NCBI GenBank assembly: GCA_963701185.1
Contig: OY969569.1
Coordinates: 383,054 to 447,053, forward strand
Direction: 5' to 3'
Source: Candidatus Gottesmanbacteria bacterium
Lineage (GTDB): Bacteria > Patescibacteriota > Microgenomatia > UBA10105 > UBA927
DNA length: 64,000 bases
Positions 2,903 through 58,946 of this stretch are shown here, piece after piece (position 1 is the first letter of the stretch; every line of letters starts with the position of its first letter). The notes under the pieces were generated by a model. It was not told the DNA's origin, made no database searches, and was given only the letters and a program-made list of their open reading frames with translations. A program made the translations under genes and the position numbers.

Positions 2903-3174
2903 AGAGATGGCATGTCTATATCCTTCGCTGTGCTGATAATACACTCTATACCGGGGTGACGACAGATATTGAGCGCCGGATCCATGAACATAATATAAAA
3001 TCGTCAGGGGCAAAATATACGAAAGCGAAACGCCCGGTGACGCTTGTCTATTCTGAAGCGGTTCCAAACCGAAGTGCGGCGCTCAAACGCGAAGCGGCAA
3101 TAAAAAAACTATCAAAACGGGAGAAAGAAAACTTGACGCGACACCCGGGCTATGTAACTATAGAACCATGCTAA
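2899..3174 (+). CDS. GIY-YIG nuclease-domain protein (UPF0213/YhbQ-like)
   Basis: N-terminal WHVYILRCADNTLYTGVTTDIERRIHEHN matches the GIY-YIG signature. Confidence 0.75.
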   Translation: MKRWHVYILRCADNTLYTGVTTDIERRIHEHNIKSSGAKYTKAKRPVTLVYSEAVPNRSAALKREAAIKKLSKREKENLTRHPGYVTIEPC

Positions 3175-3764
3175 GGAAGACCCTATTGGCTTTATTGTGG
3201 TTTCCGCTCACATTCACTCTGCTTATCATAAACCTGACGATATTGGGAGCAACCTCCAACTGGGACCGTCCGACTCTTCCGCTCTCAAATGCCGCACCGA
3301 ATGAGAATAGCATCACGGCCGCAGGCGGCACATCGGAGGTTCTCTCGGCGACCGTTATCGCCGGCGACGCGCGGACGTTTCTCCTGGAATCATTTCTGAA
3401 AAGAAATAATTCTCCGATGACGCCCTACGCAGGTCTTATTGTGGAACAGGCAGATGCCTATAAGTTTGATTTCCGGCTGGTGCCTGCAATCGCCATGTGC
3501 GAATCGAATCTCGGGAAACGCGTACCGCTCAAATCCGGATTTAATCCCTTTGGTATTGCGGTGTATACGGGGAGCCAATCCGGCAAAAATTTTGACAGCT
3601 GGCAAACTGCTATTGAATGGGTGAGCAAGTATATTCACGACCGATATTACGTCCAGGGGATTACTGCACTTGCGGATATCGGGGCAATTTGGGCACCTCC
3701 GTCGGTTGCCGAGGGCGGTTCGTGGGCCGACTGCGTCGGATTCTTCATGAAAAAGCTCTATTGA
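3168..3764 (+). CDS. secreted protein with glucosaminidase/FlgJ-like domain (paralog 1)
   Basis: N-terminal TM/signal segment. AIAMCESNLGKR resembles the glucosaminidase A-x-ESxxG motif. Paralogous to 3869..4426. Confidence 0.45.
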   Translation: MLRKTLLALLWFPLTFTLLIINLTILGATSNWDRPTLPLSNAAPNENSITAAGGTSEVLSATVIAGDARTFLLESFLKRNNSPMTPYAGLIVEQADAYKFDFRLVPAIAMCESNLGKRVPLKSGFNPFGIAVYTGSQSGKNFDSWQTAIEWVSKYIHDRYYVQGITALADIGAIWAPPSVAEGGSWADCVGFFMKKLY

Positions 3765-3868: not shown

Positions 3869-4426
3869 ATGAAAAAAATATTAACGATCATCATGCTCCT
3901 TTTAGCCTTATCTGGCCTCTCAACGGCCAAAGTTTTTGCCACATCTGAGGCTGGTTCTACTGCAACGCTTGCCTATCATGTAGCCTCAGATACAACGAAT
4001 GACACGCGGGTTAGGCGCCTCCGAATGTTTTTGGAATCGTATGATTCGCCGCTTGCCGCTGACGCCGCAACATTCGTCGCTGAAGCTGATAAATATAACC
4101 TCGATTGGAAGCTCGTTGCCGCGATCGCAGGCGTGGAATCCACATTCGGCAAACAGATTCCGACCGGCTCATATAACAGCTGGGGCTGGGGTGTATTTAC
4201 CGGAGCGGCGGACGGCGTCCATTTTAAAGACTGGGCGCAGGGTATCGCTGTGGTTTCCGAAGGGCTGCGCAAAAACTACATAGACCGCGGTGCCCGGGAC
4301 ATCTATGACATGGGCTGGATTTATGCCGCCAACGGTGATTCGTGGGCTTCGCATGTCCGCTACTTTATCGATAAACTGGAAACGTTTCAGCCCACCGAGG
4401 TTGCCCAACTACCGGTCTCCATCTAA
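3869..4426 (+). CDS. secreted protein with glucosaminidase/FlgJ-like domain (paralog 2)
   Basis: Signal peptide MKKILTIIMLLLALSGLSTA. AIAGVESTFGKQ motif. Colinear similarity to 3168..3764. Confidence 0.45.
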   Translation: MKKILTIIMLLLALSGLSTAKVFATSEAGSTATLAYHVASDTTNDTRVRRLRMFLESYDSPLAADAATFVAEADKYNLDWKLVAAIAGVESTFGKQIPTGSYNSWGWGVFTGAADGVHFKDWAQGIAVVSEGLRKNYIDRGARDIYDMGWIYAANGDSWASHVRYFIDKLETFQPTEVAQLPVSI

Positions 4427-4432
4427 GCGGGG

Positions 4433-4438
4433 TATAAT
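4433..4438 (+). promoter_or_regulatory. -10 box TATAAT for tRNA-Leu
   Basis: ggtataat, 8 nt upstream of the tRNA 5' end. Confidence 0.4.
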
Positions 4439-4446
4439 ATCACTAT

Positions 4447-4527
4447 GCCGCAGTGGTGGAATGGTATACACGTACGCTTTAGGAGCGTATGCCGAAAGGC
4501 TTAGGGGTTCAACTCCTCTCTGCGGCA
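4447..4527 (+). tRNA. tRNA-Leu (anticodon TAG), long variable arm
   Basis: gccgcag...tacgc-ttTAGga-gcgta, variable arm tgccgaaaggctta, T-arm, acceptor ctgcggc. CCA is not encoded. Confidence 0.8.
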
Positions 4528-4558
4528 CAGTAAAAATTATCTATTGATAAGGAGTATT

Positions 4559-5032
4559 ATGAGATATCTTGAAAGTCAATTACCTAGACGGGGTGAACCT
4601 TATACTAATCGCACAGAACCAAAAGAATATTTTGATTATCAGGATGAAATCAAAAGATTAGCCAATAATATAAGTCGTGAAACGGCTAATCATATTTTTC
4701 ATTTGATCCACAGCGCAGAACAATCTTACCAACCTGCGACGGGAAAAAGAGCTGAACTATTGGAGGATCACCGAGATGATGTGGCGGATATTTTTTTCAG
4801 TTCGACCCAATACGCAGAATATTTTTATCAACACGCGATGGGAAATTGCATCGAACAATTAAATAACCCCCGGTATGTAGAAAGGACCCTGAGAAATTTA
4901 TACCCTGTTTTATTAAGAGAATTTCCGTCGTTACGGTCGATCTTTCGAGAGTCGATTACAAAATTGCCACATGGAGAAGAGGTGATTATGGCGATACAAG
5001 GATTGGATGATTTTAAAGATCTTTTCAAGTAA
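4559..5032 (+). CDS. hypothetical protein (157 aa) in islet
   Basis: ATG at 4559 with an aaggag RBS. AT-rich. No known motif. Confidence 0.45.
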   Translation: MRYLESQLPRRGEPYTNRTEPKEYFDYQDEIKRLANNISRETANHIFHLIHSAEQSYQPATGKRAELLEDHRDDVADIFFSSTQYAEYFYQHAMGNCIEQLNNPRYVERTLRNLYPVLLREFPSLRSIFRESITKLPHGEEVIMAIQGLDDFKDLFK

Positions 5033-5161
5033 ATCCATTTTCAATCCATATTGACAACATATATTCGTGTTAATTATAGTTGTGAGCTAATTGATATTTT
5101 GTGTTGGTAAAACACTTGTTTTCCATTGATTAATCCACATAATCGTGTCGTAATTTAGGAT

Positions 5162-5587
5162 ATGAAGCAAAATATCCCTAAAAAGCGACGTATTTGTGTG
5201 GACTGTAATAGTAAATTAATTAAGTGGGGGGAAACCGGTAAAGGTCGGATTCAATACCGTTGTCCGTTGTGTTTAAAAACAAAATCTTCAACCCCTCGAA
5301 CACATCGGCCACCAACCTATCTCGTCACTCAACCTACTCGGGGAATTATCTCGATTTGTGGTTTCAAGATCAGCTGTTTCAAACTCCACCACACTTTTCA
5401 CTTCCCATTCCTCATCGAGAAGAACAATACGTTTTACTCGACGGTCTTTGGTTTGGGGATAATCTCAATCTTCTTGCTTACAGACTTCATCATTGGCCAT
5501 TTATCATTCATCACTCTTTTGGGAAAAGAAAGACGACCGCTCGTAGAGGTTCAACTCCTCTCTGCGGCACAACATAACACCTTTTGA
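5162..5587 (+). pseudogene. IS1595-family transposase remnant (N-terminal zinc ribbon only, probably frameshifted or truncated)
   Basis: CVDCNSKLIKWGETGKGRIQYRCPLC matches the Zn_Tnp_IS1595 ribbon. The overlapping frame 5260..5577 carries the continuation (QYVLLDGLWFGDN). Total length is far short of a DDE transposase. Confidence 0.45.
5548..5571. repeat. direct repeat of tRNA-Leu 3' end (putative attR)
   Basis: Identical 24 nt to 4506-4529. Extended similarity of 28 nt with 1 mismatch. Confidence 0.8.
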
Positions 5588-5626
5588 TCTCTTGAATCTT
5601 CATCAAAATCCGCATATTCTTATACT

Positions 5627-5881
5627 ATGTTAACCACCCGTGATCTTTCGCAAATACAAAAAATTGTCCAGCTTGAATCAAAAAAATCGATCCAATCTGA
5701 AACGCCGGGTATCGTCAAAAAAATTGTACAGGAGGAACTGAAACCAATTAAAAAGGATATCCTGGCAATAAAGAAAGATATAAATCTCATTGTCAAAACA
5801 TTCGATCGTGATTATGTCGCGCTTCGCAAAAAAGTCGAACGCCTAGAAACTCAGCCCTTTCCGTTATTTACGCACGCCTGA
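5627..5881 (+). CDS. hypothetical small coiled-coil protein (84 aa)
   Basis: Lys/Ile-rich heptad-like sequence. C-terminus is loosely similar to 17783..18115. Confidence 0.35.
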   Translation: MLTTRDLSQIQKIVQLESKKSIQSETPGIVKKIVQEELKPIKKDILAIKKDINLIVKTFDRDYVALRKKVERLETQPFPLFTHA

Positions 5882-5902
5882 TTTCATGATACAATTCTTC
5901 CC

Positions 5903-6724
5903 ATGACTTCAACAATAAATCGGGAAACGGACGGGTCTATAGCGATTACCATTACCATCCCCTGGGCGGATGTGGCCAAAACATACGAGAAGGTCGTTGC
6001 CGATATGGTCAATCATGCGGAGCTTCCGGGCTTCCGCATCGGCAAAGCCCCCCGCGAACTGGTCGAAAAAAATATCGACAAAACAAAAGTCTATGAAGAG
6101 GCATTAAAAACTTTAATCCCGGATTCCTACAATGCCGCAGTAACGGAACAAAAAGTCAAACCGATCGTCAGCCCAAAAATTGAACTCAAGGATGCCACCG
6201 AAAACAAAGACTGGGTATTTATTGCCCACACCTGCGAAAAACCGAATATCGCGATAGGGGAGTATAAAACGGCCATCCAGGGCACCAAAACAAAAATATT
6301 AAAACCCGGCGAAGAACCAAAAAAACCCACACTCGATGAACTTCTTGCCGCTTTATATCATAATGTAACTGTCACACTCCCGTCACTTCTTATCGAACAC
6401 GAAGTAAACCGTCTGCTATCGGAACTTATCGACCAGACCAAAAAACTCGGGCTGACCGTCGAGCAATATCTGGCGTCGACTGCACGCACCAGCGAAACAA
6501 TCAAGAAAGAATATGAAGAGCAGGCAAAACGGACGCTCACATTGGAATTTGCACTTGAGGAAATCGCCGATGCCGAGGGCATTCTTGTATCTGACGATGA
6601 TATCGATGCCGTCATTAAAACCGGCAAAACCGATGAAGAAAAGAAGACACTGGAAAATCAACGCTACTATTTGGCATCGGTCCTGCGCCGCCAGAAAACC
6701 CTTGACTTTCTCGCTTCAATATAA
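5903..6724 (+). CDS. tig: trigger factor, short form lacking the PPIase domain
   Basis: ELPGFRIGKAPRELVEK is the TF ribosome-binding signature (GFRxGKxP). The C-terminal arm domain is present. Only 273 aa. Confidence 0.7.
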   Translation: MTSTINRETDGSIAITITIPWADVAKTYEKVVADMVNHAELPGFRIGKAPRELVEKNIDKTKVYEEALKTLIPDSYNAAVTEQKVKPIVSPKIELKDATENKDWVFIAHTCEKPNIAIGEYKTAIQGTKTKILKPGEEPKKPTLDELLAALYHNVTVTLPSLLIEHEVNRLLSELIDQTKKLGLTVEQYLASTARTSETIKKEYEEQAKRTLTLEFALEEIADAEGILVSDDDIDAVIKTGKTDEEKKTLENQRYYLASVLRRQKTLDFLASI

Positions 6725-7526: not shown

Positions 7527-10500
7527 ATGAAATTATTGGGCCGACGGCTCTATAAACTTTTCTCCGTTATCAGCGGCCTCTCACTCGTTTTTAATTCACT
7601 GCTTCCCGCATCACTTTTATCCGTAATTATTGCGCCTCCGGCGTATGCACTGGAAGCACCAACCGGCGCGACGGGGGCAATAGACGCAACCGGAGCGACC
7701 GGCATAACTGCAGATACCGGTGTTTCCGGACCCAGCGGCGCAACCGGAGATGTTGGCCCGACCGGCGCGTCAGCGGAAATCGGCCCCAGCGCTACGACCG
7801 GAACATCCGGATCGACGGGAGCCACCGGATCAACCGGAGAAATTTTAGACGGTATTTCCACCGAGTCAGCGCAAATGACGCCCCCGACAGAAACCATAAC
7901 TGCAACGGTTACTACCCCTGAAAACACGCCTGCCTCTGAAGTTTCCCCGACCGTCAATGAAACCGGTCCACCGGAACAAACAGCAACGCCCACACCGACG
8001 TCCACTCCGACACCCGCTCCTGAACAACCAGAAACCGGAACTGTAAGCGTCATCACGAACCCATCCAGCCAACAGCAACTTGATTTATCAACGTATGACC
8101 CGACAAGCGGGACCCTCAAAAATGATTTTGCTCCCACCGATACGGTTCTTATTATCGGAACCGGATTTAAAGCAAATCATACGTATACTGTAACAATCAG
8201 TTCGAGCGACCCGCCTGCAATTACCAACCAAACAGAGTTTACCGTTACCACCGATAACGACGGCGTCTTTAAACAAGACTATACGCTCGACGGGAACTAC
8301 CGGCCGAATTATACAGTCGTTGTCACCAACCAAGGCGGCCACCTTATCGCAACCACAACGTTTACAGATACACAACCAGCATCGGGAGATTTACAACAAT
8401 GTCGCAATGGTTCTGCAACCTCTCCAAACAATTGTCTTGATTTGGGTAGCGGGCAAGGATGGGTTAGCGGTAATGCAGGAGGATCAAACTCTCATTACGT
8501 TGAGGGATTTTCAATACCATATCGAGAAATTTTGACAAATCTTCCGACTGGAACTTCTATTACTCTCACGCTTGGGTATGACATCACACACAGTAGCAAA
8601 CACGCAATTGACTTCCTTACCCATTACAATAGGTTACAACCACACTCTCCTTTTGGTCACGCAGCAGAGACCATTACTCCTACCGATGGTGTAAGCGGCC
8701 TTTCCGCTACAGTTTCAACATACCCGATTCCGGCACCAAGTTCCATCGGTTCGCCTTCCACCGACCAACCCACTAGTAGTTTTAATTCTTTACCGAGCGG
8801 CGAACGAGTAATGACTCTTTTTGGAGGAACCATCAACAATGTTGTCTATGTTTCTCAAGGGAATTTAACTGATGCGCAAGCTGAAACGCAAATTGCTATT
8901 ACCTTCACAGCAGATAACTCAACTGCTGTGCTTGCTTGGGGTGGTCACATAGCACGCGAAATTGACTGGGGCTTAAATAATTCTGCCGGTGGCATCTCAG
9001 GATCCCCGTATCACATGCGTCAAATAGGTTGGACATTAAATAATTTAGGAAACACCGATAGATCTCTCTCTGCTGATGCTGTTGAACCTCCGAGCTCTAT
9101 AACAATTATTAAGGACGCACAACCAGATAGCGCTCAGGATTTTAGTTTCACAACTGTAGGAAACGGTCTTTCCAACTTTACACTGGATGATGATGGGGGA
9201 TCAGATAGTACGTATTCGAATACAACAACATTTAATAGTCTTCTTGCTGGAACATATACAGTAACGGAAACAACCGTTTCAGGGTGGTCATTAGCTTCAA
9301 AAACGTGTATTTCAGACGGAACGGGAAGTACCAGTTCACAAATTACGAACGGTGTTTCTGTTGTTCTTGTTGCAGGAGAAAATGTTACCTGTACATTCAC
9401 AAATTCCTTACAGTCAGCACACCTGACTCTGGTAAAAACAATTACCAACGACAACGGCGGAACGGCTGCTGCCACTGACTGGACGCTTTCTGCAAGCGGC
9501 TCGACACCAATTTCAGGCACTACAGGAAGTGGCGCCGTTACTAACGCGGAAGTTAATGGTGGAACATATACGCTTTCTGAATCTGGCCCAACAGGTTACA
9601 CAGCCGGTAGTTGGAGTTGTACAGGCGGAAGTCAAAATGGAAACCAAATTACGCTCGCAGCAGGAGAATCAGCAACTTGTACAATTAATAATAATGACAA
9701 CGCTCCTCAATTACATCTTCGTAAAACCATAACAACAGATAACGGAGGAACCGATCTTGCAACCGACTGGACACTTTCCGCAACCGGGGCACTTGGAAGT
9801 CCAACGAATTTGTCTGGATCGACGCCCGTAGATAGCACAACAGGTTTCAAAGCCGACACGTATTCGTTAGCGGAAACAGGAGGTCCAACAGGATATAATG
9901 CCGGCGCTTGGGATTGTGGTGCCGCCACCATGCCGGATGCGACTCATGTTACCGTTCCTCTTGGCGGAAACGTTACCTGTACCATTAACAATAACGACAA
10001 CGCGCCCGCATTACATCTGCGAAAAGTTGTCGTGAACAACAACGGGGGAACAGCTGTTGCAGCCAACTGGACATTGTCATCCTTCGGTCTGACTCCGCTT
10101 TCCGGAACAACTCCTGTCGACAGCGATGCTACATTTAAACAGGGTACCTACACATTGTCTGAAACCGGCCCATCAGGTTATACAGCATCGGCATGGGATT
10201 GTGTCGGCGGAACACAAAGCGGAAGCAATATCACGGTTGGGTTAGGGCAATCCGCAACCTGTACGATTACTAACACTGACATCGCCCCCACTTTAAAACT
10301 CGTTAAGGTGGTAACGAATGATAACGGCGGGAATAAAACACCGGCCAATTGGACATTGACCGCAACGGGAACGGGCGGATTTAGCGATACCGGCGATTCA
10401 ACGACATTCCATACGGTAAAAGCCAACGTAGCATATGCACTATCTGAATCCACGGTTATCGGATATGACGCAGGGACTTTTTCCTGTGACGGCGGAACGC

Positions 10501-13500
10501 TCGTTGGCCAAAACCTGACACTCGGACTCGACTCTGATGTCACCTGTACAATCACCAACAATGACCAGGCTGCACATCTTATCGTTATTAAACATGTTGA
10601 TAACGGCACGACCGGGGCCACATACACCGCAGCTGATTTCACAATGACAATTAACGACGTGACTGCATCAGGCGGAAATTCATTTGCCGGAAGTGAAAGT
10701 CCGGGTACGAATAAAACGTTAACGACTGTCGGATCATATACCGTAACAGAAAGCGGACCTCCAGGGTATACGAAAACGGCGTCAACCGATTGTTCAGGCA
10801 CAATTGCACTTGGTGAAACAAAAACCTGTACCATTACCAATACGGCAATTGCCCCGCAGCTTAAGCTTGTAAAGACTGTTACCAACGATAACGGCGGAAC
10901 GAAACAGGTATCGGATTTCCCATTGTTCATAGACGGAAATGGGGTAACTAGCGGGGTATTTAATTCTGTAACGGTTGGTTCGCATACTGCAACAGAAACT
11001 TCGGATTCCGGTTATTCCGCATCAGTTTGGGGAACGGATTGTGCATCAAACGGATCTATTACATTAGCTCTCGGAGATTCTAAAACCTGTACGATAACCA
11101 ACAATGACAAGGCCGCCCATTTAATAGTCATCAAACACGTTATTAATGATAACGGCGGGACAAAATCCGCAGCAAATTTTTCAACAACTATTTCCGGTGT
11201 AACAACTGTAACCCCGACTGCGCCAGGTGCAGAATCACCTGGAGTTGATAACATTCTGACAACAGTGGGTTCTTATAGTGTCGATGAAGGCACGCATACC
11301 GGATATGCAAAATCTCTTTCAACTGATTGTACCGGTTCAATTGCTTTGGGCGAGACCAAAACATGTACAATTACCAATGATGATATCCAACCGAAACTTA
11401 CGCTGACGAAAATCGTTAAAAACGACAATGGAGGGAATGCTGTTATTAGTGATTTCCCTCTTTTTGTAAACACCACTCCGGTGACAAGCGGAGTGCAAAA
11501 TGGATTCGATGCGGGAACGTATACTGCCTCTGAAACAAATCTAGGCGGATATACCGCAAGCGCGTGGAGCCCCGATTGTGCACCCAACGGATCAATTACG
11601 CTCGCAGTGGGAGACGTAAAGTCCTGCAGCATCGTGAATGATGATCAACCAGCGCATATCGTGCTGAATAAAGTCGTTAATAAAAATCACGGCGGCACGG
11701 CAGATGTGAATGATTTCGGTATTTCCATTGATGACGGTTCCGTTCTATCCGGATCAACTCATGACGTTACTTCAAATACCTCGCACACACTAAATGAAAC
11801 GGGGTTGACGGGTTACGAATTTGTATCACTGACAGGAGATTCAAAATGTCCAAGCGTATTAGGCGGGGGAGTAACACTCAATGAGGGTGAAACTGTCAAC
11901 TGCACGATAACGAACGAAGATATAGCCCCGACGTTACATCTTCGAAAGACTGTCACAAAGGACAACGGCGGAACTGCTCTTGATACAGCATGGACGCTGA
12001 CTGCAACTGGTACGCTCGGAAGTCCGACGAATTTGTCCGGGTCAACACCTGTGAATAGCGGAGCAGACTTTAAAGCCGATACGTATACTCTGGGTGAAAC
12101 AGGACCTTCAGGATACTCTGCGAGCGGATGGACATGTACCGGTGACGTCAAAAATTCGGGCAATTCAATTACGTTAGGACTCAGTCAATCCGCTACCTGC
12201 ACCATAAACAATGATGACAATGCGCCTTCTCTGACCCTTATCAAACACGTAACGAATGATAACGGGGGAAATGCAGCGACTACCGACTGGACATTAAGTG
12301 CTGATGGGCCCACGTCAATTTCAGGCGCTGGCGGCGTGGTAAGTGGCGCAAGTTTTGAAAAAGGTACATACGCGCTTTCAGAAAGCACCGGACCATCCGG
12401 ATATACGGCGGGAACATGGAGCTGTACAGGCGGAACTTTTGTAAATAATCAAATCACGCTCGGACTTGGCGACCAAGCCACTTGTGAAATAACCAACGAT
12501 GACCAGCCGGCAACTCTTATTGTCATTAAACACGTTGAAAACAATAACATTGGTACTGCTGTTGCAGATGATTTTACTATGAACGTGACAGGAACAAATG
12601 TTTCCGATTCGTCCTTTGCAGGTGCAGAAGATCCCGGCACATCAGTAACGCTCGATGCGGGATCGTATTCGGTGAGTGAAACGGGTATAACAGGCTACTC
12701 TGGCTCTTATTCCAATGACTGCAGCGGGGCGATAGCAAACGGGCAAACGAAGACGTGTACTGTAACCAACACGCGGGATATCGGAACAATTACTGTAAAC
12801 AAGGTACTCGTCCCAGCCAATGATCCGGGCCTTTTCACCCTTAAAATTGATGGCAGTGCTGCCGGAACCGGCACCGATGTCGGGAATGGCGGAACAACTG
12901 GCGCAATTACAGTTGGAAGCGATCTCCATTCCGTAAATGAGGTTGGCGGCACAAACGGAACAGACCTAAGCAATTATTTAACAACTTATTACTGTACCGG
13001 TGGAGAGGGATCTTTGCGCGGTACAGGAACAAATATCTCCGACATTGATGTCGGATCCGGTGATGACATTGTCTGTACGTTCACCAACACCCGAAAAACA
13101 GGAACACTTCTCGTTCATAAAGTCGCCGACACGAATGGCGATGGGCAATACGACAGCACAGATCCGACAAACTTCAAATGGGGAACGGAAAGCGCCGTAC
13201 TGGCAACCACCGATATGGGAACGCCACAGACGCTAATCACCGGAAATTATAACGTGTATGAAAATATTGTCCCGGGCTACCAATTCACTGGCTGGTTCCC
13301 GAATGGATTTATCGATGACAACGAAATCCGGTATAGCTGTGAGCGTTTACCGCAAGGGCCCCAATATACCCAGTTACCGACGGATATCGCGGTAACCACG
13401 GATCAAACGGAACTCACCCTGTGTAATAAATTTATCAATCCGATCCTGACGATTACGAAGGAGAACAACACCGGCGGGGCGGATATATCACCGGGCAGTG

Positions 13501-14078
13501 GCGTTCTGTATACCCTGACGGTCACGGCAACGCAGAGCGCTGCGTTTAACGTAACGGTGACCGACCTTCTGCCGGCAGGATTTACCTACCGGGCCGGAAG
13601 CTGGACGGCAAATTCCAACAAGCGCGGGGATATTAAATCCCCACTCGGTCCCACGACAGAACCCACCTATGCTTCACCGGGAGTCTGGAAGCTCGGCAAT
13701 ATGATTAAAGACGAAAGCGTCACCCTTACCTATATCGCGGATGTCAGCAGTGCTCAACAGGCCGGACTGTATCACGATCTTGCCTGGGCGGCAGGGTGTA
13801 AAACAGATACTAATTGTAGCGATGTCTTATCCAATGCAACCGATCCGGGATTTGTCGCCGACCATTATGTCGGAACGCAGGTAAGCATCGTTACCAACAC
13901 ACAAAACGGCGTCTCGCATAACGTCATCAATACCGTTGAAAGTCAGGTCTTGGGCGCCAGCACCGAACTGCCGGCCACAGGCGCAAACACATTCTGGCTG
14001 TATGTCGCATTCGCTCTTATCACCGGAGGAATAAGCATTGGTGCGCTGGGATGGTTTTTACGGAGGAAATATGCGTAA
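7527..14078 (+). CDS. giant LPXTG-anchored surface protein (2183 aa) with N-terminal collagen-like GXT triplets and about 13 tandem Cna-B/prealbumin-like beta-sandwich repeats
   Basis: Signal peptide. The block [13 protein letters not shown]...[11 protein letters not shown] is followed by a Thr/Pro-rich linker. Repeats of about 93 aa each contain L-x-L-x-K-x-V-x-NDNGGTA...DWTLSA...GTY-x-LSE-x-GP-x-GY...W-x-C-x-GG...ATCTI-x-N-x-D. C-terminal sorting signal LPATG plus TM plus RRKYA. Confidence 0.85.
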
Positions 14079-55869: not shown

Positions 55870-55941
55870 AAGTTCACCAATCCACCCGGAGGGTGTATTG
55901 TCTAATTGTGTTACACTAAAGTATAGGAGGTACGTAGTACT

Positions 55942-56463
55942 ATGGCAGAATTTCCAATCAAAGATTTACCAATCGGTCCGAACCCCGGTCAACAAAACAT
56001 GGATAAAGTTGTTGCTAGTATAAATGATATGGTAAGAACAAAAATGGGAGCCTTGCCGGACACAGGACCAGCAGGTAGACATTTTCTTGATGGCGAGCAC
56101 AGTTTCTTTGGCTATAACGGCGTTGTTGTCCGTGAAGGGAAAATTGTATCATTGGTAAATCTCAATGGGGATGAGGATATTCCGCCTATCAATTTGGATA
56201 CGGAAATCACGATAGAAGGAGATTCGCGAGGGTATGTCAGTTCCGGGCATAAGCCTGGGGATAGAGTAAAAGTTATAGGATTTATTGAGCCCAATTTTAA
56301 AGCGGCAGAAGGCATACGGTCTTCCGACAAAATAATACAAGTGGAGGGGGCTGGAACAGTCGGATGGATAAAACCATCAGAATTTGACAAACAACTTCTC
56401 AAAAAACAACAGGAAGAAGAGATTGGGAAATTGTTTAATCCACCTAAACAGGAAGAGGGTTAG
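55942..56463 (+). CDS. hypothetical protein (173 aa), AT-rich cassette ORF between palindrome copies B and C
   Basis: Intact ORF with no TM and no recognised motif. Compositionally AT-rich versus its flanks. Confidence 0.5.
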   Translation: MAEFPIKDLPIGPNPGQQNMDKVVASINDMVRTKMGALPDTGPAGRHFLDGEHSFFGYNGVVVREGKIVSLVNLNGDEDIPPINLDTEITIEGDSRGYVSSGHKPGDRVKVIGFIEPNFKAAEGIRSSDKIIQVEGAGTVGWIKPSEFDKQLLKKQQEEEIGKLFNPPKQEEG

Positions 56464-56549
56464 GTTCCTTTATTTTCTAGCACCAGCACCGCCAGGAGCT
56501 AAAACCCCGGAAAAAACTTTTGATTTTTGTTCATTAAATATTTTCATAA

Positions 56550-56572
56550 CCTACGAGGATACTCCTCGTAGG
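56550..56572. repeat. hairpin cctacgagga-tac-tcctcgtagg (10-bp stem) abutting palindrome copy C
   Basis: Read directly. An imperfect homolog (ctacaagga-gag-tcctcgtag) sits at 55818-55838 before copy B. Confidence 0.7.
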
Positions 56573-56574
56573 CC

Positions 56575-56602
56575 TGTTTTAATGTTTTAAAACATTAAAA
56601 CA
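56575..56602. repeat. 28-bp perfect palindrome copy C
   Basis: Identical to copies A, B and D. Confidence 0.9.
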
Positions 56603-56624
56603 AACGTTATGATATATTTAGCGC

Positions 56625-56897
56625 ATGACAGAGCGAAAAGACATATATTTAGATAATTTTGAACAGCTTTGTCCATTAGTGAAAATAGGATGGATGCCGC
56701 TCTATCCTACGGGAAGTAATCCGCAAAATATAAATATCTTACTGACAAAGGAATTTCCTGAATTTCAGGATAAAGAAACTGAGGGCGCTGCTGCGGATGC
56801 CGTAGCTATGACGTGCTCCGATTGTGAGTATGCACATTCAAACCCCCTAACAAACACAGTATGTTTTTCTAATCAAGGAGTTCCGGAAATAGTGTAA
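56625..56897 (+). CDS. hypothetical small Cys-containing protein (90 aa)
   Basis: AT-rich ORF. Four Cys (C16, C64, C67, C80) could form a Zn site. Confidence 0.4.
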   Translation: MTERKDIYLDNFEQLCPLVKIGWMPLYPTGSNPQNINILLTKEFPEFQDKETEGAAADAVAMTCSDCEYAHSNPLTNTVCFSNQGVPEIV

Positions 56898-56993
56898 CAG
56901 CAGTTATATATGTATCTGTTAAAGGAATTGAAGTGTAAGAAATTTGATTCGTTTGCCTAGACAACCATCCTCAAGTATTGTACAATGATTTAG

Positions 56994-58946
<1,953 letters not shown>

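Follow-up and report, generated by a model that had tools for sequence, protein, structure and literature searches.

RESULTS

An insertion at the 3′ end of tRNA-Leu(TAG) that is absent from the closest relatives

An islet of about 1 kb lies immediately downstream of the tRNA-Leu(TAG) gene in the 64,000-nucleotide stretch of DNA analysed here (hereafter the window), whose source, judged by the relatives of its downstream trigger-factor gene, is Candidatus Gottesmanbacteria (Patescibacteria/CPR). Positions 4530–5543, together with one copy of a direct repeat, are an insertion, because in the closest relatives, L024 and L025, the tRNA is directly joined to the flank that follows the right repeat copy in the window. 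The best reading of this islet is that of an immobile, decayed scar of past mobile-element traffic, a well-known kind of feature. An MFS transporter, a GIY-YIG protein and a pair of glucosaminidase-like paralogs precede tRNA-Leu(TAG), in this order; after it come the islet, orf84, a short trigger factor and DUF5660. The features of the islet and its borders are as follows.

4447–4528, + strand: tRNA-Leu(TAG), intact, the probable integration target (ARAGORN; Rfam RF00005 at 4447–4527, 53.8 bits)
4502–4529, + strand: left repeat copy (attL), the 3′ part of the intact tRNA-Leu (repeat finder)
4559–5032, + strand: ORF157, orphan 157-aa protein, possible cargo (ORF list)
5051–5080, + strand: strong sigma-70-like promoter match (TTGACA-18-TATAGT, 11/12), between ORF157 and the insertion-sequence remnant
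5081–5541, + strand: putative left portion of an IS256/IS1249-like insertion sequence, dead, ~460 bp of ~1.1–1.25 kb (HMMER, family HMM, alignments)
5544–5571, + strand: right repeat copy (attR), tRNA-Leu 3′ fragment in displaced position, adjoining the native downstream flank
5627–5881, + strand: orf84, native conserved small Gottesmanbacteria gene of 84 aa that flanks the islet (17 homologs)

The tRNA gene is 100% identical to that of the empty-site relative L024. Its 3′ part belongs to a direct repeat of 28 nt, whose two copies differ by a single mismatch (G4505 vs A5547) and are spaced by 1042 bp, and within which an exact 24-mer, GGTTCAACTCCTCTCTGCGGCACA, occupies positions 4506–4529 and 5548–5571. 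This confirmed the recurrence of the tRNA-Leu end some 1.04 kb downstream that a first-pass annotation of this DNA had described; its positions were about 1 nt off, because the repeat extends 1–2 nt beyond the tRNA end. The repeat starts 3 nt ahead of the T stem, takes in the T arm and the 3′ acceptor strand, and runs through the discriminator to end 2 nt past it. The 24-mer has only these two matches in the 64-kb window with up to 3 mismatches allowed, so that within the window it is not the common tRNA-derived repeat that would have undermined the first-pass reading. No repeat match to the 24-mer occurred in any of 100 dinucleotide-preserving shuffles (0/100), and the direct repeat is far beyond chance. 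The mismatched base A5547 belongs to the arm of attR that faces the element, and both the tRNA and L024 have G there. This fits a crossover to its right, and could equally reflect drift in a functionless fragment.

In L024 and L025, whose trigger factor (tig) is 91% identical at the amino acid level to that of the window, the order is glucosaminidase-like gene, tRNA-Leu(TAG), orf81 and trigger factor, and the islet is absent. BLASTN aligned window positions 4301–4528 with 1899–2127 of L024, and window positions 5544–5999 with 2101–2510, and both flanks overlapped by 27 nt on the single repeat copy of L024. The window flank after attR, AACATAACACCTTTTGATCTCTTGAAT, was collinear with CATTACACCTTTTGACCTCTTGAAT, which is found directly 3′ of the L024 tRNA. 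As aligned, L024 and L025 thus carry a clean empty site, of the kind that the first-pass annotation had proposed to look for in related genomes. L008 is also without the islet, and L003, whose contig starts within the tRNA 3′ end, is consistent with an empty site. In the window, the left repeat copy is part of a working tRNA and has foreign DNA after it, and the right copy has foreign DNA before it and the native flank after it. The insertion at the tRNA 3′ end with attL/attR-like repeats was therefore borne out, both the regenerated tRNA and the displaced 3′ fragment being found.

An independent Logan assembly, L001, was 100% identical to the window over 5,998 bp including the islet. Exact-protein look-ups for the flanking genes returned the same strain only, and the islet unit with ORF157 was found in one genome lineage only, no other copy being seen. 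The bracketed segment has a GC content of 37.6%, compared with 48.9% for the window, which places it in the lowest 0.2% of same-size windows. It is AT-rich, as had been noted earlier, but low GC does not set the insert apart, because the native orf84 region just outside the islet is equally AT-rich (37.4% GC). Taken with the orphan gene and the insertion-sequence fragment, this base composition makes the segment look foreign.

The right part of the islet appears to be a pseudogenised IS256/IS1249-like insertion sequence

The 141-aa ORF at 5162–5587 does exist, with only about its first 48 codons in the frame of the family to which it is related. Exhaustive HMMER searching with a query composed from two frames retrieved the family P0002–P0010, among which P0006, of 337 aa, is full-length and P0007 and P0008 span both the zinc ribbon and the part read in the −1 frame. 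When the three frames of the window were compared with the family profile, the frame of position 5162 matched profile positions 3–44, the zinc ribbon, over nt 5180–5305. The match then resumed in the −1 frame, where nt 5311–5541 correspond to profile positions 65–141 and include the first catalytic-Asp motif, LLDGLWFG. About 20 family positions (codons) are missing between 5305 and 5311, in addition to the change of frame, and the protein alignment agrees. Beyond 5541, the family profile detected no transposase-family homology. The transposase is hence cut off at about residue 130 of about 337, 2 nt before the right repeat copy. On these alignments, we take 5081–5541 for the left 40%, now pseudogenised, of an IS256/IS1249-like element.

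Two statements of the first-pass annotation did not survive this comparison. The 141-aa ORF does not represent the true reading of the gene, given that the homology moves to the −1 frame at 5311–5541, and the fragment is not devoid of a DDE domain, since the first catalytic-Asp region (DGLWFG), and thus part of that domain, is present. Of the DDE triad and the two terminal inverted repeats that an intact element has, the window copy retains only the region of the first Asp and the left-end block. The left-end block, AGCTAATTGATATTTTGTGTTGGTAAAAC, is a conserved non-coding stretch at about 5085–5115, some 50–80 nt upstream of the start codon. It is conserved in L019 and L020, the two other copies with readable DNA, and in L020 it coincides with the left terminal inverted repeat, the terminal inverted repeats of that copy lying at 1057–1071 and 2164–2178.

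We considered a programmed −1 frameshift at T_TTA_AAA (5270–5276), as in IS1, and rejected it on the profile pattern. A deletion in a pseudogene is indicated instead, because the HMM keeps the first frame up to 5305, skips about 20 positions and resumes in the −1 frame at 5311. As a separate observation, the best-matching relative, L020:1138–2168, is itself split into ORFs of 149 aa and 197 aa, right after a conserved GKR motif, which is the same point as the truncation of the window copy. Many database members of the family are also fragments, of 149–189 aa. This could mark either a hot spot of recurrent frameshifts or a frameshift that is programmed.

The family assignment also departs from the earlier description of a textbook IS1595 zinc ribbon. 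The N-terminal four cysteines have a spacing similar to that of IS1595, but the window protein gave no match to the Pfam IS1595 (PF12760) and InsA zinc-ribbon models, or to PF12762. Its zinc ribbon scored 26.6 bits, below the cut-off of 28, with the generic IS1/IS1595 Zn domain of NCBIfam, and 23.5 bits, below the cut-off of 27, with IS256_N_4Cys. P0006 reached 15.7 bits with the IS1595 model; with the NCBIfam IS1249 model, its E value was 3e-38 over model positions 4–326 of 382 (131.9 bits, for a cut-off of 300), and with the IS256 "variant Zn-binding type" (IS256_Zn_var) it was 1e-26. The second NCBIfam score of the full-length homologs was 93.8–107.9 bits, for a curated cut-off of 150, and P0004 matched Pfam Transposase_mut (Mutator family) with 46 bits, above the cut-off of 21. 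Membership of IS1 or IS1595 was rejected, there being no Pfam match and the homologs matching IS1249/IS256 and Mutator models instead. The likeness to IS256/IS1249 (NF033544, NF048019) lies, for the window copy, in the N-terminal CxxC-x17-CxxC zinc ribbon and in DGLWFG, and for the full-length homologs in end-to-end alignment with the IS1249 model and in the DGG, QICLAHxHR and TTNxIE motifs. The difference is that the window copy is a frame-shifted fragment, which itself scores 21 bits only with IS1249, and that the full-length homologs stay below the curated NCBIfam cut-offs. For the latter reason, the homologs form a distant, apparently uncatalogued IS1249/IS256-like branch with a zinc ribbon, found in metagenome contigs.

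ORF157 is an orphan

ORF157 is preceded by a Shine-Dalgarno sequence, AAGGAG, at 4549–4554. A word-indexed search of 5.8 billion proteins returned no homolog other than itself, it was not found in IMG/VR, and it had no significant match in Pfam, PHROG or NCBIfam. The description of a 157-aa orphan was therefore upheld. A single-sequence AlphaFold2 model was all-helical and unusable, with a pLDDT of 44. As to the promoter match downstream of ORF157, the number of promoter-type sites in the region was not above the shuffle expectation.

Search for an integrase or a parent element

No integrase was found in the islet, whose ORFs are ORF157, which matches no family, and the DDE transposase fragment only. 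A six-frame translation of the 64-kb window contained no XerD-like sequence by a search with a XerD query, which is a weak negative. In a Pfam scan of 54 window ORFs, the best 25 of 65 families were mostly housekeeping ones, together with one IS200-like transposase. IMG/VR yielded nothing with ORF157 or the 24-mer, and no related element with the att sequence or ORF157 was found in the protein databases either. The first-pass annotation had spoken of a lost integrase: the absence holds for the islet and the window, whereas a former presence is inferential only. Since no recombinase remains, the islet can no longer move on its own. An SSV-type arrangement, with att lying within a recombinase gene that is split by integration, was considered and rejected, because circularisation of the unit adds only 5 codons (VKIIY*).

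orf84 is native, and the interval between tRNA-Leu and tig varies among Gottesmanbacteria

The AT-rich stretch continues past attR into orf84, which raised the possibility that orf84 was an islet gene. We rejected it, since relatives without the islet have orf84 conserved and in synteny. It has 17 homologs in Gottesmanbacteria, which we used to retrieve further contigs. A homolog lies between tRNA-Leu and tig in L021, L024, L025, L026, L028 and L029; in L022 and L027, whose contigs are cut at the end, it immediately precedes tig. In the more distant relatives L026, L028 and L029, the series is tRNA-Leu, orf85, a 266-aa gene, a 125-aa gene and tig, and L027 has the same series with a contig start inside the tRNA. 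Homologs of a 283-aa and a 142-aa gene occupy the interval in L002, L010, L011, L013 and L014; they are also found upstream of tig in L004, L009 and L012, where tRNA-Leu was uncalled at an assembly gap or contig end. The tRNA directly adjoins tig in L008, and the L003 contig opens within the 3′ end of the tRNA, immediately ahead of tig. Because gene content differs in this way across relatives, comparison of the contigs identifies the interval between tRNA-Leu(TAG) and the trigger-factor gene as a recurrent hot spot of gene gain and loss in Gottesmanbacteria.

We noticed that L008 (2086–2130) and L003 (1–66) keep ATTTACGCAC, which corresponds to the last codons of the window orf84. This suggests that orf84 may have been deleted in the L008 and L003 lineages.

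L021 and L023 carry a 25-nt tRNA-Leu-like 3′ fragment, GGGGTTCAAATCCTCTCGGAGGCAC, 50 nt downstream of their own tRNA-Leu(TAG) (L021:730–1278). In L021, this fragment matches the window-type tRNA end at 22/25 positions, better than it matches the tRNA of L021 itself; a GC-rich hairpin-like stretch comes before it and an orphan ORF, ORF156, directly after it. In sequence terms, it looks like a second, independent insertion footprint at the same tRNA. A relationship between ORF157 and ORF156, which sit at the same spot, was rejected (BLASTP E = 10).

Incidentally, fairly close relatives do not share one acceptor stem in tRNA-Leu(TAG) (window vs L002, L008, L010, L013, L014, L021 and L026). The variants, GCCGCAG, GCCGGGA, GCTCCCG and GCCAGGG, have compensatory changes on both strands, and such change is unusually fast for a tRNA gene.

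DISCUSSION

Site-specific integration followed by decay is the probable origin of the islet

We consider it probable that a foreign element entered the 3′ end of tRNA-Leu(TAG) by site-specific integration, and that 4530–5543 and the 28-nt duplication are what is left of it, now immobile. The comparisons above show the insertion relative to the closest relatives, its precise borders, what it contains and its pseudogene; to these we add, by inference, an integrase step, a crossover direction and later deletions. A tyrosine-type integrase would have recombined attP with the tRNA gene, attP carrying a copy of the T arm and 3′ acceptor strand of that tRNA and being expected to contain TAGAGGTTCAACTCCTCTCTGCGGCACA. 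The copy brought by the element would now complete the tRNA (attL, 4502–4529), and the original tRNA 3′ end would have been displaced 1042 bp downstream (attR, 5544–5571), with the native flank still adjoining it. The element would later have shrunk to ORF157 and the pseudogenised left 40% of an insertion sequence. Under this scheme, attB should read as the tRNA directly followed by AACATAACACC, and the junction of the circle should contain CGCTCGTAGAGGTTCAACTCCTCTCTGCGGCACAGTAAAAATT.

Site-specific integration is favoured because the geometry matches the published signature of tyrosine-integrase islands, in which the tDNA is regenerated and its 3′ fragment is displaced in direct orientation (PMC4383910). 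The different footprint at the same tRNA in L021 and L023, and the variability of the interval up to tig, also speak for it. In the Islander collection, a 3′ fragment is present in 3760 of 3919 islands and attP lies in the T-stem region in 1836, and according to its authors tyrosine recombinases are the only ones known to target tDNAs (PMC4383910). Like these islands, the islet has an intact regenerated tRNA, a direct displaced 3′ fragment and a block of identity that runs from the T stem to the 3′ end, and it is AT-rich, foreign and absent from close relatives that have the empty site. It differs in its size of about 1 kb and in its lack of integrase, phage, plasmid or conjugation genes. Having no internal tyrosine integrase, it would fail the integrase filter of Islander and is a scar rather than an active island.

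One feature is less comfortably accommodated. The repeat begins only 2 nt beyond the last position with transposase homology, and the integrase model needs either a coincidence or a deletion that stopped at attP/attR, where selection preserving att is perhaps what stopped it. Illegitimate (microhomology) recombination, possibly homology-facilitated, explains this end more naturally, and we regard it as a possible, if doubtful, alternative to an integrase. The incoming DNA would then have consisted of tRNA-Leu, ORF157 and the insertion sequence, anchored by homology on the side of pgh185 and the tRNA, and its other end would have joined the T arm of the recipient tRNA by microhomology (TAGAGG vs TAGGGG). 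A joint of this kind would both duplicate 24–28 nt and truncate the transposase gene, so that a single event would set where the gene is cut and where the repeat begins on its left. The repeat itself has the look of such a joint, with 24 exact nt and a single mismatch in the 4 nt to their left, and its right edge, the tRNA 3′ end, falls at a variable region where homology between strains ends anyway. That neither an integrase nor a parent element turned up in the islet, in the 64-kb window (by the XerD query), in IMG/VR or in protein databases points the same way. Homology-facilitated illegitimate recombination, however, usually deletes recipient DNA and does not duplicate it, and the donor arrangement that it calls for, tRNA-Leu followed by ORF157, was not found in the search of 5.8 billion proteins. 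Moreover, the extent of the repeat, from the T arm to the 3′ end exactly, is that of the canonical attP identity block of tRNA-targeting integrases (PMC4383910).

The islet might instead be a minimal non-autonomous element, a 1,042-bp unit excised and re-integrated by an integrase encoded elsewhere or by a phage, and we hold this to be unlikely. CIMEs are att-flanked remnants of integrative elements that lack recombination genes of their own, and the islet resembles them in being flanked by attL-like and attR-like copies and in having no integrase. Both repeat copies are intact over 24 exact nt, and the in-silico circle is a compact arrangement of two genes, in which the transposase-derived frame ends 5 codons past the att core and the ribosome-binding site of ORF157 follows directly after that frame. 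Against this stand the restriction of ORF157 and the unit to a single lineage, the empty site in the closest relatives and the frameshift and internal deletion in the transposase-derived gene; the trans-acting integrase and the mobility are themselves only hypothetical. Very improbable is the elaborated form of this idea, a still-mobilisable Patescibacteria mini-element in which attP would abut the shortened, domesticated derivative of an IS1249-like zinc-ribbon protein, the flush junction would be functional, ORF157 would be a selected cargo and the integrase would act in trans. We give hardly any credence to the proposal that the IS256/IS1249-like DDE transposase inserted the segment next to the tRNA and that the repeat arose as a target duplication of unusual length or as an element end derived from a tRNA. 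The transposase fragment is indeed the only recombinase-related sequence of the islet and adjoins the repeat, but IS256-family target duplications are 8–9 bp, the junction falls inside the transposase coding region and not at an element end, the other copies, L019 and L020, are devoid of tRNA or T-arm-like sequence, and L020 has ordinary terminal inverted repeats. That only tyrosine recombinases are known to target tDNAs also speaks against it (PMC4383910). Least credible of all is an assembly chimera or a chance repeat. The genome is metagenome-derived and repeats can cause misjoins, but two assemblies are 100% identical across the islet, the repeat appeared in no shuffle and relatives are collinear with the window at each of the two junctions.

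The islet provides a precisely mapped insertion of foreign DNA at a tRNA gene in a CPR bacterium whose genome measures about 1 Mb. In the Candidate Phyla Radiation, mobile elements are sparsely documented. The wider consequence is small beyond the correction of the annotation, that is, a pseudogene that is not IS1595 and an orf84 that is native.

Other features of the window

We made several further observations in the window. Upstream of tRNA-Leu, 3168–3764 and 3869–4426 (+ strand) are tandem paralogs, about 35% identical, with weak glucosaminidase/SLT-like matches, and both are conserved at this position across Gottesmanbacteria. At 110–754 (− strand), a 214-aa ORF has an IS200-like Y1 transposase domain (PF01797, E 2.4e-8) and lies in another low-GC stretch, with about 39% GC over 1–1200. 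A further local GC minimum, also of about 39%, is found at about 55900–57000. Finally, 7527–14078 (+ strand) encodes a repetitive surface protein of 2183 aa with a C-terminal LPATG sortase-like motif followed by a hydrophobic tail, and its orthologs in L024 and L026 have SpaA-type domains.
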